DNA of 4,796 bases. It comes from a virus. Taxonomy: Duplodnaviria; Heunggongvirae; Uroviricota; Caudoviricetes. Position numbers and translations under genes: made by a program. The notes under the pieces are model-generated. The model had not been told where the DNA came from and searched no databases. It saw only the letters and a list, made by a program, of their open reading frames with translations. Location of the stretch: IMG/VR virus record IMGVR_UViG_2778261227_000011; one strand, 5' to 3'. Of this stretch, positions 1 to 4,796 are shown piece by piece (positions within the stretch are counted from its first letter, which is position 1; each line of letters begins with the position of its first letter).

Positions 1-1024
1 AAAGCTGCTGCAGCCAGACCTGATGAATTGATGAAATGTAGGAATAGAGAACGCTGGCGTTATGTGCAACGTCGCTCGGTACAGGGGGTTTTGAAAGCTG
101 TTTCTCCATCTGGTTAAAGGCATTGATATATGCCTCTTTGAACTGGGCAGCACGTTTACCCGTGAAACCCATAGCAAGAAACGCAAAGCCGTCGCGGGTT
201 ATTTGATAGCAAGGTAGTTTGCGACCTGTGCAATCAGTGTAATCACTCACCGAAAAATTGCGGGCAGTGAATGATGCTGAGCATTCAAGCGTGCGGATCT
301 TTTTCAGTACATCGTCATGACGTTTGGAGAAGAAGTTGGCAACAGCCAGGGATGAAGTAACAGCCTGACCATCAACGATGGCAATTTCAGGTTGAGTGAG
401 GGTTGGGATCGTAGCCATGATGGCAGCCTCTTTGGTGATTTTTAATAACTCACCACCAAGGCTTTCCACGACCTTATTGGTGGTGAGACGTACAGGGGTG
501 GAAATACCGGTCACCAAAGAACCCGGCCCAACCGAAGTTGGCCCTGCACGCCCCACCATAATTTGGGCGTAATGCTGCTCATGACACAAAAAAACCGCAA
601 GAGCGCGGTTGTGCGCTTTGGTGAATTCCGGGTTTCCACGCCCGGCACCCGTTTTATAAGGTGCCTGAACAGTGTAACGTCCCGGAATGGCAGAATCAAT
701 GTGCTGGTGGTCCTTCACACTCAACAAAATCACGCCTGAATTTCCACAAAGGACTAAAGCACTCATGCGGGTAGTCTTTGCGAAGATAGATAACGCGCTG
801 TGTTTCTGGCTCCCAACGAATAACATGGACATAAAGCCCTCTTCCGTCACGAAACCAGCGGTTAAGTTCCTGCACAACTCGCCCCCCACAGTCAGGTAAA
901 GTTCTCTGTGGTTACTTACAGCCAGGTGATCTGGTAATCTGCATTCATGCCGTAACAACAGGTGTTCAGCGACACTGACCACCAGCTGTTGCGACAAACG
1001 GTTATTTGCCGTTAAACTGTTCAT
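1..1024 (-). CDS. Phage early-operon protein, partial (341 codons in window, continues past the left edge). The distal half (encoded about 1-420) is a Rha-family phage regulatory domain; the N-terminal ~200 aa are of unknown function.
   Basis: I checked codon by codon that the minus-strand frame is open from 1027 to position 1, so the six-frame track omits it because it runs off the edge. The ATG at 1024-1022 overlaps the upstream TGA stop at 1023-1021 (ATGA coupling). The translation contains ...IVDGQAVTSSLAVANFFSKRHDDVLKKIR...YQITRDGFAFLAMGFTGKRAAQFKEAYINAFNQMEKQL, which matches my recollection of the Rha (Phage_pRha) signature. An internal ATG at 418 with an AGAGG Shine-Dalgarno is an alternative start just upstream of the Rha domain. 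Confidence 0.65.
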   Translation of the reverse strand, partial: MNSLTANNRLSQQLVVSVAEHLLLRHECRLPDHLAVSNHRELYLTVGGELCRNLTAGFVTEEGFMSMLFVGSQKHSALSIFAKTTRMSALVLCGNSGVILLSVKDHQHIDSAIPGRYTVQAPYKTGAGRGNPEFTKAHNRALAVFLCHEQHYAQIMVGRAGPTSVGPGSLVTGISTPVRLTTNKVVESLGGELLKITKEAAIMATIPTLTQPEIAIVDGQAVTSSLAVANFFSKRHDDVLKKIRTLECSASFTARNFSVSDYTDCTGRKLPCYQITRDGFAFLAMGFTGKRAAQFKEAYINAFNQMEKQLSKPPVPSDVAHNASVLYSYISSIHQVWLQQL

Positions 1025-1599
1025 GCGTTAGTTTCTCCACAGACACAAAACGCCACGACGCCCGGAGCTGCACACTCGCGGGCGTTACTCTTTTCCGGCG
1101 CACAAAAAACACGAAATAACAGTGTTAAATGCTCCTGCCACTTCGCCATTACTTGGTAGCTGTTCTCTTCGATTTGCTCACGCTCAGCCTGGTCAATAAC
1201 TCCATCAGCAGTTGCCTTGCGTAAGTACTGGGAATGCTTGCCAATCCATTCTATTGACTCCATCAGCCGCTGATTAATGTCACCATTGTCAATGTCATCA
1301 ATGTCCACCAGCGGCACAAACACCCCATTACTACGACGCGCTATCGCATCCGTTACATGCCTGGTACCACTGGCATCCTGTAAAACCATGGCCCACTCAA
1401 GTGGAAAAATTTGATCCCCACCGCTACGCAGTCTGTTATGCAATTGATCTTTCGCTGGGGTGATATCATCAGATTTATACAAACCAAGAATTTCCGCTGC
1501 TTCCTCATAGCCATGAGGTAAATCAGCAATCGTTCTTCGTATTGCTGCCACCAGCCATGCTGGTTGCTTATCAACTTTCCATTCAGGTTCTTTACCCAC
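1021..1599 (-). CDS. YdaT-like regulator (functional CII analog of Rac/CP-933P-type prophages), 192 aa, GTG start.
   Basis: This is the frame of the track ORF 1021-1710, but the ATG at 1710 would overlap the Cro-like gene by 83 nt. An in-frame GTG at 1599-1597 is preceded by GAGGA (reverse complement of 1607-1611) at 7-nt spacing and lies 28 nt after the Cro-like stop. Its position directly after a YdaS-type Cro gene and its acidic region DIDDIDNGDINQRLMESIEW fit YdaT/CII-like proteins. The family assignment is from memory, not from a search. Confidence 0.7.
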   Translation of the reverse strand: MGKEPEWKVDKQPAWLVAAIRRTIADLPHGYEEAAEILGLYKSDDITPAKDQLHNRLRSGGDQIFPLEWAMVLQDASGTRHVTDAIARRSNGVFVPLVDIDDIDNGDINQRLMESIEWIGKHSQYLRKATADGVIDQAEREQIEENSYQVMAKWQEHLTLLFRVFCAPEKSNARECAAPGVVAFCVCGETNA

Positions 1600-1627
1600 G
1601 GTTAATTCCTCGTTTCTGTGGTTACGT

Positions 1628-1891
1628 TTACGCAGCTGAACCGCTAACTTTTGAATAGCACTCAGGTAATCCATCATTTGGATTGGGGTAAATATCAGGA
1701 CGCAGTTCATGAGGGGTCACGGACCAGTTTCCCAACTCACAAAGTTGTAAAACCCGTTCTGACGGGACTTGATTGTTAATTACCCAATTAGCGACGGATT
1801 GAGTGGACTTAAAACCAAAGCGACGGGCTACTTCAGATAAAGATTTTCCCGCAGCCTTTACTGCTTTCTCTGTGTAGTTTTGAGATGACAT
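1628..1891 (-). CDS. Cro-like HTH regulator of the YdaS/DicC type, 87 aa.
   Basis: ATG at 1891-1889 is preceded by AGGAG (within the reverse complement of 1893-1905, cagaggagaaagg). The translation has an HTH segment (LSEVARRFGFKSTQSVANWV) and the VTPHELRPDIYP motif typical of YdaS-family Cro-like proteins. It is divergent from a CI-like repressor gene. Confidence 0.85.
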   Translation of the reverse strand: MSSQNYTEKAVKAAGKSLSEVARRFGFKSTQSVANWVINNQVPSERVLQLCELGNWSVTPHELRPDIYPNPNDGLPECYSKVSGSAA

Positions 1892-1899
1892 GCCTTTCT

Positions 1900-1916
1900 C
1901 CTCTGAAATTCAGAGG
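1900..1916. promoter_or_regulatory. 17-bp perfect palindrome cctctgaa-a-ttcagagg at the predicted PR start / Cro-like 5' UTR.
   Basis: 8-bp perfect arms around one central base. It overlaps the Shine-Dalgarno of the Cro-like gene. It may be a protein-binding site or an RNA hairpin. Confidence 0.35.
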
Positions 1917-1917
1917 G

Positions 1918-1946
1918 ATGATGCTACTTAAAATAGCAAATTGCAA
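1918..1946 (-). promoter_or_regulatory. PR-like promoter for the Cro-like operon: -35 TTGCAA (1941-1946), 17-nt spacer containing an operator site, -10 CATCAT (reverse complement of 1918-1923).
   Basis: The minus strand reads TTGCAA-tttg-CTATTTTAAGTAG-CATCAT, which is the same layout as the pL-like promoter at 4301-4329. The predicted start is about 19 nt upstream of the Cro-like ATG, leaving room for the Shine-Dalgarno. Confidence 0.45.
1924..1936. promoter_or_regulatory. Operator site (OR, copy 1): ctacttaaaatag, an imperfect 13-bp dyad of the CTAC-N5-GTAG-like family.
   Basis: Exact 13-bp direct repeat of 1947-1959 at 23-bp centre-to-centre spacing (lambda OR-like). It sits in the spacer of the PR-like promoter. 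Confidence 0.5.
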
Positions 1947-1959
1947 CTACTTAAAATAG
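1947..1959. promoter_or_regulatory. Operator site (OR, copy 2): ctacttaaaatag.
   Basis: Identical to 1924-1936. It lies immediately upstream of the -35 of the candidate PRM. Confidence 0.5.
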
Positions 1960-1961
1960 AA

Positions 1962-1990
1962 ATGACTAGCGCGTGTGATGTGAGTAATCT
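1962..1990 (+). promoter_or_regulatory. Candidate PRM-like promoter for the repressor: -35 ATGACT (1962-1967), 17-nt spacer, -10 TAATCT (1985-1990), start near the ATG at 1998.
   Basis: Weak matches to the sigma-70 consensus, as expected for an activated PRM. The call is purely positional. Confidence 0.25.
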
Positions 1991-1991
1991 T

Positions 1992-2004
1992 CTACCTATG
2001 GTAG
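1992..2004. promoter_or_regulatory. Operator-like dyad (OR, copy 3): ctacctatggtag, with perfect 5-bp arms CTACC/GGTAG; overlaps the repressor start codon at 1998.
   Basis: Same CTAC...GTAG end pattern as the other sites. Its position over the repressor start suggests autorepression. Confidence 0.4.
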
Positions 2005-2702
2005 AAGAACAGAAGTATCCAGATTTCGCCAAGAGACTAAACGAATTGATGACAATCAAAGGAATCTCTGTCACTCAACTCAAAAGTCTTGTGGGCGTTA
2101 CATATGAAATGGCTCGTCGATACACAATCGGCGCAGCGAAGCCACGTGTCTCTGTCATGAGTAAACTTGCGTTGGCTCTTGGGGTATCAGCTTCATATCT
2201 AGAATATGGTGTTGGAGATAGAGAGGAATGTAAGGAAATGGCAAGCATCCCCAATCCAACAAAGCCCGATGTATACAGGATAGAAGTTTTGGATCTTAGC
2301 GTTAGCGCAGGACCTGGGACCTATATGCTTTCAGACTATGTTGATGTGCTCTACGCCATTGAGTTCACAACTGAACATGCCCGTTCTCTTTTCGGAAACC
2401 GTTCTCAGAATGATATAAAAGTTATGACGGTAAATGGAGATAGTATGTCCCCAACTCTTGTTTCCGGGGATCGATTGTTTGTCGACATTTCCGTTCGCCA
2501 CTTCCAGACTGATGGAGTTTACTCTTTCGTTTACGGTAAGACTTTCCATGTTAAACGTCTACAAATGCAAGGCAACAAACTAGCTGTTCTTTCGGATAAC
2601 CCCGCCTATGAGAAATGGTACATTGATGAGAAGTCGCAAGATCAGCTTTATGTTATGGGTAAGGCACTGATTCATGAGTCGATTAAATATAATCGACTTT
2701 AA
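1998..2702 (+). CDS. CI-like prophage repressor: N-terminal XRE-type HTH plus C-terminal S24 (LexA-like) autopeptidase domain, 234 aa. Probably leaderless; in-frame upstream starts at 1962 (ATG) and 1941 (TTG) are possible.
   Basis: HTH region FAKRLNELMTIKGISVTQLKSLVGVTYEMARRY. Putative RecA-dependent cleavage site Ala-Gly in VSAGPG (codons at 2307-2312). Catalytic Ser in VNGDSM and Lys in HVKRL are 37 residues apart, as in LexA. There is no Shine-Dalgarno before 1998, consistent with a leaderless PRM-type transcript. Confidence 0.88.
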   Translation: MVEEQKYPDFAKRLNELMTIKGISVTQLKSLVGVTYEMARRYTIGAAKPRVSVMSKLALALGVSASYLEYGVGDREECKEMASIPNPTKPDVYRIEVLDLSVSAGPGTYMLSDYVDVLYAIEFTTEHARSLFGNRSQNDIKVMTVNGDSMSPTLVSGDRLFVDISVRHFQTDGVYSFVYGKTFHVKRLQMQGNKLAVLSDNPAYEKWYIDEKSQDQLYVMGKALIHESIKYNRL

Positions 2703-2926: not shown

Positions 2927-4012
2927 ATGATTAATGAACGTACTGAAGCGACAGATGGGGTAGCAGATATGATTTCCACCAATACAAAATATTTAGTATG
3001 GAACAACAAAGGTGGTGTAGGAAAAACTTTTCTTACATATAATCTTGCCGTTGAGTTTGCTATATCTCATCCGGATCAAGATGTTGTGGTTATTGACTCA
3101 TGCCCTCAATCAAACGTTTCAGAAATTATTCTTGGTGGCAATGGTACCGGGGAAGAAAATCTAAATAAATTGCGAGACAGAAATGTTACAATCGCAGGTT
3201 ATATCAAGGAACGTTTTAGCAAATCTCCTTTGTCTCGTTTAGGAAATGAATCTTCTTACTTTGTACGGGCCCATGACGTTAATGCAAAAATGCCAGAGAA
3301 CTTATATATTCTTCCTGGTGATGTCGATCTTGATATCTGTTCACGCTTAATATCTCACATTGGCTCATCCCCAGTAAAAGAAGCATGGAAGAAAAGCCGA
3401 TCTTTGCTGGTAGATCTAATAGCATCTTTTGAAGCCGATAAAAACATTTCTGACAGAGCAAAAACATTTTTTATTGATTGTAATCCAAGTTTTGCCAGCT
3501 ACACAGAATTGGGAGTAGTCGCGGCAAATAGAATAATTATCCCTTGCACTGCCGATGCTGCATCAATTCGCGGAATAAAAAACCTTGTTAAACTTATTTA
3601 TGGAGTGTCTATTGACAAGTCAGAACAAGATGAAATGTTCTTAGATTTCAACAAAGAAGCAAAGCAAAACCTTATCGAACTACCTGAACTACACCTTTTC
3701 GTACAAAACCGCTCAAGAACTAATGAAAGTGATGCAGCAAAAGCATTCAAATCACATGCAGAAGAGATCAAAAGAATCACGGATGACCTGTTAAATACAC
3801 ATCCTCATCTGTTCACAAATGTGGCTACTTTCGAGAGGGTTCAAAATGTCAAAGATGGTAATACTCTTGCAGCAATAATAAACCATGAGGGATGCCCTTT
3901 AAGTAGGCTGCAGCATAAGAGTTACACTATCTATGGTATGGCGACCCAAGCTAATAGAGCACAAATTGAAGCACTAGAATCTGATGTTTCAACAGTAGTC
4001 AAGTGTCTGTAA
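2927..4012 (+). CDS. Orphan ParA/MinD-family (deviant Walker A) P-loop ATPase, 361 aa, on an AT-rich cargo island; function unknown.
   Basis: KGGVGKT deviant Walker A at residues 28-34 (nt 3008-3028); VVVIDSCPQSN (A-prime/switch region); LYILPGDVDLD; Walker B-like FFIDCNPS followed by RIIIPCTADAASIRGIKNL. An AGGA lies about 9 nt upstream of the ATG at 2927. An alternative start at Met15 (2969) would place Walker A at the more typical residue ~14. No parB-like ORF follows. Confidence 0.85.
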   Translation: MINERTEATDGVADMISTNTKYLVWNNKGGVGKTFLTYNLAVEFAISHPDQDVVVIDSCPQSNVSEIILGGNGTGEENLNKLRDRNVTIAGYIKERFSKSPLSRLGNESSYFVRAHDVNAKMPENLYILPGDVDLDICSRLISHIGSSPVKEAWKKSRSLLVDLIASFEADKNISDRAKTFFIDCNPSFASYTELGVVAANRIIIPCTADAASIRGIKNLVKLIYGVSIDKSEQDEMFLDFNKEAKQNLIELPELHLFVQNRSRTNESDAAKAFKSHAEEIKRITDDLLNTHPHLFTNVATFERVQNVKDGNTLAAIINHEGCPLSRLQHKSYTIYGMATQANRAQIEALESDVSTVVKCL

Positions 4013-4339: not shown

Positions 4340-4356
4340 AACAACAGACTGTTGTT
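4340..4356. promoter_or_regulatory. 17-bp perfect palindrome aacaacag-a-ctgttgtt just downstream of the predicted pL start.
   Basis: 8-bp perfect arms around one central base. This is the same geometry and the same position relative to the promoter as the 1900-1916 palindrome at PR, but a different sequence. Confidence 0.3.
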
Positions 4357-4725
4357 AACGAAAGGTTGGTTGTAACACGGCGTATGGCACATGCGTCGTT
4401 AGCGGTCTGGGGACGTTAAAGGGGACAATCCACTCCTTGCTCGAGCAAACAAACCAGGTAGCCGGAATGTGCAAGTCAATGATGATGCTGATAAGACGCC
4501 TAACCAGCGTGGCGATTCGGTTTGACGCCTGGGAAGAGACCAGGGTGCAACGATGAGGGCATTTATGGAGCCGCGACAAAGTGTGGTGCCATAACTGGCT
4601 AAGTGCTCTCAGCGTTGTGGTAATCCGCGAAATGGCGCGGCGGTAAGTATGGCGGGGTTATCCTTACCCCATTAGTGGCACCGGGTTGTCAGGTTGACCA
4701 TACGCTTAAGTGACAACCCCACCAC

Positions 4726-4787
4726 AACAGCCACTGCTTTGGCGGTACCAGTTTGTACACTTGCTTCCGGCTGGTACCGCTCTTTTT
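4726..4787 (+). ncRNA. DicF-like sRNA candidate (prophage-encoded, processed from the early-left transcript); 5' end approximate.
   Basis: tttggcggtaccagtttgtac resembles my recollection of the E. coli DicF core tttggcggtatcagttttac, and it is followed by a hairpin and U-tract. The placement downstream of a repressor-controlled pL-like promoter after a leader with no long ORF mirrors the Qin dicA / ydfABC-dicF-dicB layout. The comparison is to a sequence recalled from memory, not a search. Confidence 0.35.
4741..4787 (+). terminator. Intrinsic terminator hairpin with U-tract; would also form the 3' end of the DicF-like RNA.
   Basis: Perfect 10-bp stem gcggtaccag (4742-4751) / ctggtaccgc (4771-4780), 19-nt loop, then tcttttt (4781-4787). 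There is no U-tract on the opposite strand. Confidence 0.6.
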
Positions 4788-4796
4788 ACAAAACAG

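Follow-up and report, generated by a model that had tools for sequence, protein, structure and literature searches.

An open reading frame that bridges an RNA immunity cassette and a Rha-family gene in a lambdoid prophage: a probable counterpart of P4 eta/kil

Introduction

The locus described here has its closest described relatives in the eta/kil region of the satellite phage P4, the isrK-orf45-anrP region of Gifsy-1 in Salmonella and the immI region of phages P1 and P7. The immI region has a c4-icd-ant layout, which was reportedly set out by Citron & Schuster in 1990 and by Heinrich et al. in 1995. Our subject is a stretch of 4,796 nucleotides (nt) from a virus of the Caudoviricetes (IMG/VR record IMGVR_UViG_2778261227_000011), referred to here as the window, and in particular a long open reading frame (ORF) on its minus strand, f0 (1..1024 (-)), which bridges the genes of two RNAs and leads in phase into a gene for a Rha-family protein. 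Our best reading of this locus is that it is probably a module for RNA immunity and anti-repressor control built like P4 eta/kil and Gifsy-1 isrK-orf45-anrP. All positions are those of the window unless another genome is named, and the features of the locus lie on the minus strand.

For P4, the passages of PMC10111431 that draw on Forti et al. 1999 place a constitutive promoter inside eta and describe early termination caused by CI and seqA. In the same passages, eta is coupled to the preceding gene, its translation prevents termination and Kil is a truncated form (PMC10111431, citing Forti et al. 1999). In Gifsy-1, part of the isrK transcription continues past the IsrK terminator into orf45-anrP; orf45 undergoes translation, and the translation of anrP depends on that of orf45. 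IsrK supplied in trans activates anrP translation, and a stable RNA, STnc1160, is processed out of the orf45 region (Hershko-Shalev et al. 2016, PMC4825925). The nucleotide sequence of orf45 is conserved while its amino-acid sequence is variable, and the orf is apparently fused to anrP in one Shigella (PMC4825925). In Stx phages, a 2022 survey describes Rha/Ash as a two-domain protein in which Ash has no assigned function and which is possibly relevant to the replication of Eru-type Stx phages (PMC8951638).

Results

The window is part of a lambdoid prophage of the mEp460/SfV/ST64B-like kind, with 99-100% identity to a prophage of E. coli C311 (L001) and ~99% identity to phages mEp460 and phiSTEC1575-Stx2k. 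A first-pass annotation, made from the sequence without database searches, had noted that the frame of the Rha-like gene is uninterrupted up to an ATG at 1024 that overlaps the preceding stop. Translation of positions 1-1024 gives 341 stop-free codons, clipped at the left window edge, and the ATG of f0 (1024..1022) lies on the TGA (1023..1021) of the upstream ORF as ATGA (1021..1024 (-)), with GGAG at 1038..1035, 10 nt 5' of this ATG. The upstream gene (1710..1021 (-)) had been called YdaT-like; its matches to NCBIfam NF041471 (E 4e-54) and Pfam Phage_CP76 make it YmfL-family/CII-like instead, and it is the ORF 5' of it that is YdaS/Cro-like. The f0 ORF is complete in L001, where it encodes 383 amino acids (aa), the last 181 codons being those of the Rha/AnrP-like anti-repressor; the extension 5' of the Rha start at ATG 418 comprises 202 codons. 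From ymfL through rusA in L001, successive genes overlap by 1 or 4 nt, but only when the long ORF is counted; without it there is a gap of ~600 nt in which a small DUF4222 gene alone would be translated. In the region of the extension (1024..419), the three frames of the minus strand contain 0 (f0), 13 and 9 stops. A stop-free result for the single frame was obtained in 0.035% of 20,000 dinucleotide-preserving shuffles of this region (P = 3.5e-4), and the openness of f0 in the window is therefore not a matter of chance.

The nested short gene (1..418 (-)), clipped by the window edge and 181 aa long in L001, encodes a Rha-family (AnrP-like) anti-repressor. Its ATG (418..416) is preceded by the Shine-Dalgarno (SD) sequence AAGAGG at 432..427. 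The Phage_pRha match (PF09669; E 2.7e-31 to 1e-30; 106.5 bits against a cut-off of 29.9) covers aa 223-308 of f0, or nt 358..101, and begins 21 codons past ATG 418, while TIGR02681 scored 102.4 bits against a cut-off of 45.95 (E 1e-29). These results confirm that the Rha-like domain lies near an internal ATG with an SD of its own, as had been noted before. A single-sequence AlphaFold2 model of the 341-aa window ORF gave a mean predicted local distance difference test (pLDDT) score of 32; since even the genuine Rha domain scored below 50, the model is uninformative on the folding of the extension.

The same or nearly the same sequence is labelled variously in databases, as a 383-aa 'Rha family' protein, a 181-aa 'ash family protein', an 'immunity region', a 'peptidase' or a 'transcriptional regulator'. 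Among the homologues of the window (L001-L008), alternative calls give a 297- or 287-aa Rha together with a separate DUF4222, and DUF4222 is annotated only where the long ORF is not called. The overlapping layout of RNA, DUF4222 and Rha genes explains this discordance both in length (383, 297, 287 or 181 aa) and in name. The annotation of SfV reads 'immunity region' and that of ST64B 'similar to P4 ORF199', so that a likeness to P4 has already been recognised in these phages.

Within the extension, the 5'-most feature is the DUF4222 gene (875..696 (-)), which encodes 59 aa in the +2 register of f0 from a GTG start behind a G-run (Pfam PF13973, E 9.5e-14; PHROG 1343, E 1e-36). A promoter-like site read from the sequence (699..671 (-)) consists of TTGATT (699..694), 17 nt and TACACT (676..671), and ends 6 nt before the 5' end of an IsrK-type small RNA. 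It has 8 of 12 consensus matches, just under the threshold of the promoter scan, and is absent from the output of that scan for this reason. The site occupies the position of PisrK and of PLE in P4, and it forms the 5' boundary of the module that is common to all upstream contexts. The IsrK-type RNA (664..588 (-); Rfam RF01394, 67.9 bits against a gathering score of 50) carries an intrinsic terminator according to a terminator scan (stem 610..593, then T7); in its region the Rfam c4-a1b1 model scores 22.6 bits, which is under the gathering score. Further downstream is a C4/CI-type antisense (immunity) RNA (563..476 (-); Rfam RF01695, 83.6 bits against a gathering score of 45), at the 5' end of which an AUG (559..557) stands in phase with Rha, 47 codons before ATG 418.

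The pairing sites expected of such an RNA are present on both sides of it. The IsrK region contains a1, GTGGAAA (639..633), and b1, TCACCAAAG (624..616). The C4 RNA contains the b' loop TTCTTTGGTGA (521..511), a 12-nt loop that includes CTTTGGTGA, and a', TTTCCAC (504..498), in the joint after the second hairpin. Downstream targets (426..471) consist of a second GTGGAAA, a2 (469..463), and a second TCACCAAAG, b2 (438..430), the latter overlapping the Rha SD sequence AAGAGG (432..427). The a' sequence is complementary to GTGGAAA at a1 and a2, and CTTTGGTGA in b' is complementary to TCACCAAAG at b1 and b2. In the window, the duplex of b' with the leader has an energy of -20.3 kcal/mol, matched by 14 of 1000 shuffles, and that of a' is weaker. 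These single-sequence energies are suggestive only, and the argument for pairing rests on covariation across types.

Cassettes for this comparison were gathered from IMG/VR, annotated phages, P4 and a few other genera; a 15-mer scan of genome contigs gave mostly chance matches, with ~8 true cassettes among the matches listed. The collection comprises 7 a-types and 12 b-types, which reassort between cassettes, and in each of them a1 equals a2 and the complement of a', while b1 approximates b2 and the complement of b'. The C4 fold itself covaries: over 15 variants including P4, 97% of the cells were paired and 11 pairs were altered on both sides. None of 500 shuffles was as good, and controls in which the partner was slid by 1-3 columns paired to ~40%. 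The a'/b' pattern is that of classical heteroimmunity in P1/P7 C4 and P4 CI. This covariation therefore suggests that sequence conservation in the cassette part of the extension is driven by RNA.

Two or three tandem cassettes of differing immunity types were found on single contigs in L062 and L064 (IMG/VR) and in L231 (Symbiopectobacterium). The third L062 cassette has a mismatch between b' in its C4 loop (CTATGTTGA) and the downstream b2 (TCACCAAAG), which points to a recombinant hybrid.

These observations bear on the 'Ash' part of the protein. The Pfam profile Phage_ASH (PF10554) matches the window ORF at aa 117-213 with 56.8 bits, above the gathering score, and many database entries are named 'ash family protein' or Rha/Ash. 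Together with the treatment of Rha/Ash as a domain protein in the Stx phage survey cited above, this would fit a fusion protein, with Rha preceded by a functional N-terminal Ash domain that has a DNA-binding, regulatory or replication-related role. The match, however, corresponds to nt 676..386 and coincides exactly with the stretch a1b1-IsrK-C4-a2b2, and conservation in this region obeys the rules of RNA, with compensatory changes in stems and matched changes in loops and targets. The part before Ash is non-homologous between loci, ranges from ~100 to ~400 codons, matches no families and is in places antisense to toxin-antitoxin genes. We consider a two-domain protein of this kind improbable. 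The 'Ash' segment would instead be the translation of the RNA immunity cassette, not a demonstrably folded domain. A large protein search with this segment returned short 'ash family' entries alone, and PADLOC gave no defence-system match for the f0 ORF, DUF4222 or the ParA-like protein described below.

The first-pass annotation had offered two explanations for the extension, a fusion with an uncharacterised N-terminal domain and a nested internal start that yields two products. The former is not supported: the stretch is filled by DUF4222 and two RNA genes, it lacks purifying selection where this could be measured, and related loci carry unrelated, family-less sequence in its place. The suggested connection with replication or origin binding is unsupported as well, as no initiator family was matched in Pfam, NCBIfam or PHROGs. 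Nor does the gene occupy the position of lambda O, since the 'replication protein' gene of mEp460 lies two genes further downstream; its counterpart in L001 is labelled just 'helix-turn-helix domain-containing protein'. The latter explanation, a nested start with two products, is favored by the homology in layout to P4 eta/kil and by evidence that the frame is kept open by selection, both of which are presented below.

The eta ORF of P4 (NC_001609; 199 aa, 8767..8168) begins with an ATG that overlaps the TGA of ORF88 as ATGA (8767..8764). Rfam matches inside eta are a1b1 (8705..8653), isrK (8692..8615) and C4/CI (8507..8420), and Phage_ASH matches residues 22-146 of Eta with E 3.8e-23. BLASTP aligned the window ORF with Eta at E 1e-10, and the sequence ...EAAIMAT... 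is common to both proteins; at this junction the 65-aa Kil begins in P4, and Rha begins in the window. Both loci thus contain a long ORF coupled by ATGA to the stop of the preceding gene, with a1b1, isrK (seqA) and C4/CI inside it in matching order and on the matching strand. In both, Phage_ASH spans the RNA cassette and the SD of the nested gene lies within the downstream antisense target. As in eta/kil, a single frame is open in the window from a point 5' of the promoter-like site, across both RNA genes and on into the nested gene. The two loci differ in that the nested product is the 65-aa Kil in P4 but a 181-aa Rha/anti-repressor in the window, that P4 is a satellite phage while the window belongs to the early-right operon of a lambdoid prophage, and that the long frame in the window also overlaps a DUF4222 gene in another frame. 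In addition, the functional evidence, eta nonsense mutations that cause termination, comes from P4 alone (Forti et al. 1999, as summarised in PMC10111431).

The likeness to Gifsy-1 (PMC4825925) includes an IsrK with a leaky terminator, the C4-like RNA STnc1160 and a downstream anti-repressor-like protein of ~180 aa, a length that follows from the coordinates in PMC4825925. The first AUG of orf45, at nt 107 from the transcription start site, corresponds to AUG 559 of the window. Unlike orf45, its counterpart in the window leads into Rha in phase and forms part of a frame that extends much further upstream, and no long bridging frame is described in PMC4825925; the cassette is located 3' of antQ in Gifsy-1 but 3' of a CII-like gene in the window. 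The immI region of P1/P7 shares with the window a C4 with an a'/b' pair, a1/b1 upstream and a2/b2 downstream, where b2 covers the ribosome-binding site of the first gene before an anti-repressor, and its C4 belongs to the same family, RF01695, and clan as the match in the window. The differences are that the sampled P1-like cassettes (L089 group) are without a bridging ORF, that P1 has a separate icd gene and that its anti-repressor is not of the Rha family.

The Gifsy-1 comparison raises the alternative that only a short leader ORF matters, one that starts at AUG 559 on transcripts from the cassette promoter and runs in phase into Rha. That orf45 is translated and needed for anrP translation (PMC4825925) argues for such a leader, as do the alignment of AUG 559 with the first AUG of orf45 and the distance between the C4 AUG and the start ATG, in nearly all cassettes a multiple of 3 (141, 138 or 129 nt). 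A short leader would nevertheless leave unexplained why the frame is open 5' of AUG 559, across the terminator, the promoter-like site, DUF4222 and embedded cassettes up to the preceding stop, and AUG 559 has no evident SD. As a full account of the locus it seems unlikely to us, although less so than a fusion with a functional Ash domain. It is compatible with the eta/kil-like reading and may describe the transcripts that start at the cassette promoter.

We examined whether the openness of f0 recurs in relatives. The frame is open in about a dozen heteroimmune cassette variants. Over the 282 nt before the start, 39 of 50 unique cassettes contain no f0 stop, while the other two frames contain 1-6 and 5-9; of the 11 that depart from this, 8 are P1-like and 3 carry a single-base indel. 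L169 groups with the few types in which the stop-free cassette frame is out of phase, like Gifsy-1 orf45.

In the part of the extension that overlaps DUF4222, the window was compared with two diverged lineages, L095, which is ST64B-like, and L188. The ratio of nonsynonymous to synonymous differences per site (pN/pS) was 0.11 and 0.15 in the frame of DUF4222 but 3.35 and 1.42 in f0, values above 1 that were measured outside the cassette, inside which selection on amino acids and on RNA is inseparable. Since pN/pS is low in its own frame and above 1 in f0, DUF4222 is the protein under selection over the overlap. With the DUF4222 protein held fixed, random synonymous recoding left f0 stop-free in ~4% of cases; all three DUF4222 lineages nevertheless have an open f0 at a pS of 0.38-0.70.

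Four related loci, each with its own copy of DUF4222, extend this observation to other embedded genes. Between DUF4222 and the cassette, the bridging frame of L184 and L190 runs antisense to genes for a TumE toxin and an HVO_A0114-type partner, and that of L154 runs antisense to genes for a Gp49/HigB-type toxin and a helix-turn-helix antitoxin. L157 carries a gene of the ProQ/FinO family (Pfam E 1e-13) on the same strand in another frame, ~690..290 nt before the Rha ATG. The embedded foreign genes span 0.8-0.9 kilobases (kb) of f0. In these loci f0 is open, with 0 stops, for 1098-1218 nt before the Rha ATG, a span over which the other frames contain 6-22; none of 5000 shuffles was stop-free. 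Synonymous resampling with the embedded proteins held fixed gave a probability of 0.007-0.33 per gene for a stop-free f0. The f0 translations of these loci matched no Pfam family. Furthermore, at least 10 distinct contexts have a substantial ORF 5' of f0 whose stop codon either overlaps the first f0 ATG (as ATGA) or adjoins it. The ProQ/FinO gene of L157 lies directly 5' of the IsrK/C4 cassette; as the gene of an RNA chaperone, it may have a functional connection with the neighboring antisense-RNA switch.

A chance or annotation artefact, in which the real gene begins at ATG 418 and the 383-aa calls are over-extended, would be in keeping with several of these data: the extension overlaps a true DUF4222 gene and two RNA genes, annotators disagree on its length, and its peptide is without purifying selection over the DUF4222 overlap. 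Against an artefact, the stop-free state is far beyond chance in the window, it recurs over heteroimmune cassettes, three diverged DUF4222 lineages and 0.8-0.9 kb of embedded genes, and the frame repeatedly starts on the stop of the preceding gene. An artefact is, in our judgment, very improbable, the least probable of the explanations considered here. Our own starting hypothesis had been that the open frame was a coincidence over RNA genes, and we dropped it on the comparative cassette data. We conclude that f0 is very likely maintained by selection. The f0 peptide is not conserved; selection acts on the openness of the frame and not on its product.

Other features of the window lie outside the f0 locus. 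The divergent intergenic region between cI and cro (1892..1990) contains two copies of the palindrome CTACTTAAAATAG, likely operators. The plus strand has a promoter-like site there (1928..1957 (+)), and TTGCAA-17-CATCAT is a possible one on the minus strand. A gene for a ParA-like ATPase of 361 aa (2927..4012 (+); PHROG 164, E 2e-46; NCBIfam ParA far under its cut-off) is situated between the cI-like repressor gene (1941..2702) and a conserved stretch that lies directly beside cI in other phages, and it looks like an inserted accessory gene (moron). This conserved stretch (4356..4796 (+)), ~440 nt in length, is 96-97% conserved beside cI in cdtI, Ayreon, PhiR40_1 and Stx2c phages, where its counterparts mostly bear the label 'hypothetical protein' or go unannotated. 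Rfam gave no match to this stretch; its fold is only a little better than those of shuffles (z = -2.1), and a strong hairpin followed by a T-run closes it near 4741..4787. The stretch could represent a leader or a long non-coding transcript.

Discussion

The resemblance to P4 eta/kil suggests how the locus may work. Transcripts from the cassette promoter would mostly end as IsrK, and those that read through would be processed to the C4-like RNA, which would mask the SD of ATG 418 and thereby keep the short 181-aa Rha/anti-repressor off. IsrK could titrate C4 and so switch Rha on, in the manner demonstrated for IsrK and AnrP in Salmonella. Transcripts from the early promoter, on the other hand, would be translated continuously, with ribosomes moving from ymfL to f0 via the ATGA and on through the IsrK terminator, C4 and a2/b2. 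Translation through the cassette would block formation of the terminator, antisense pairing at a2/b2 and the loading of Rho. We propose that the early operon (Rha, then replication genes) could be expressed despite RNA immunity because the cassette is translated. It would be the act of translation that matters and not the extension peptide, and the N-terminally extended 383-aa Rha would be a by-product or a second isoform. By analogy with P4, we regard this anti-termination and immunity-bypass function of f0 as reasonably probable. In the window, its support is indirect and comes from the stop-free frame being selected while the peptide is not.

Several observations weigh against this interpretation. 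The frame is broken by single-base indels in L022 and L064 and is also broken in L163, and P1-like cassettes (L089 group) have stops in all three frames before the regulated start. The first-pass annotation had held that homologs with a stop or frameshift between the two parts would make the open frame a coincidence or a sequencing artefact; such homologs do occur, but only as rare variants, in these three loci, and in the P1-like group. In Chania (L250) and in L291, the open frame passes through the cassette out of phase with the downstream ATG, and in Gifsy-1 orf45 is short, lies out of phase with anrP and terminates at the start of that gene (AUGA). Because of these three cases, in-phase fusion is not universal. 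Over the 145 nt from the ymfL stop to the DUF4222 start, pN/pS was 0.40 in f0 against 0.54-0.82 in the other frames, a difference that was non-significant. The duplex energies in the window are just modestly better than those of shuffles and are suggestive only, the promoter-like site is a match to 8 of 12 consensus positions, and the processing of the C4-like RNA is assumed, being taken over from P1, P4 and Gifsy-1.

A broader possibility, which we raise tentatively and judge to fall a little short of an even chance, is that f0 represents a general 'translational conduit' of lambdoid prophages, a frame that selection keeps stop-free from an upstream early gene to the anti-repressor whatever lies between them, be it the RNA cassette, DUF4222 or ProQ/FinO genes on the same strand in other frames, or toxin-antitoxin genes on the opposite one. 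If this is true, early transcription coupled to ribosomes would be blind to the prophage's own RNA immunity and to Rho. Morons inserted into the conduit would have to avoid stops in a frame that is not their own as they evolve, and the 'Ash domain' would be a by-product.

Arrangements of the eta/kil and IsrK-orf45-AnrP kinds are already known. We found no published description of a bridging frame that is fused in phase to a Rha anti-repressor within a lambdoid early operon, of the overlap of such a frame with an embedded DUF4222 gene or of evidence that a frame stays open under selection over unrelated genes embedded on one strand or the other. The related loci provide an unusually clean case of selection on the openness of a frame rather than on its product. 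The proposed reading changes the view of a common prophage gene, the 'Rha/Ash' gene beside cI in Stx-converting and other lambdoid phages (PMC8951638). It would also unite three systems that have been studied separately, P1 c4-ant, P4 CI-eta/kil and Gifsy-1 IsrK-AnrP, in a single E. coli prophage architecture, one that would control the anti-repressor and, through it, prophage induction.

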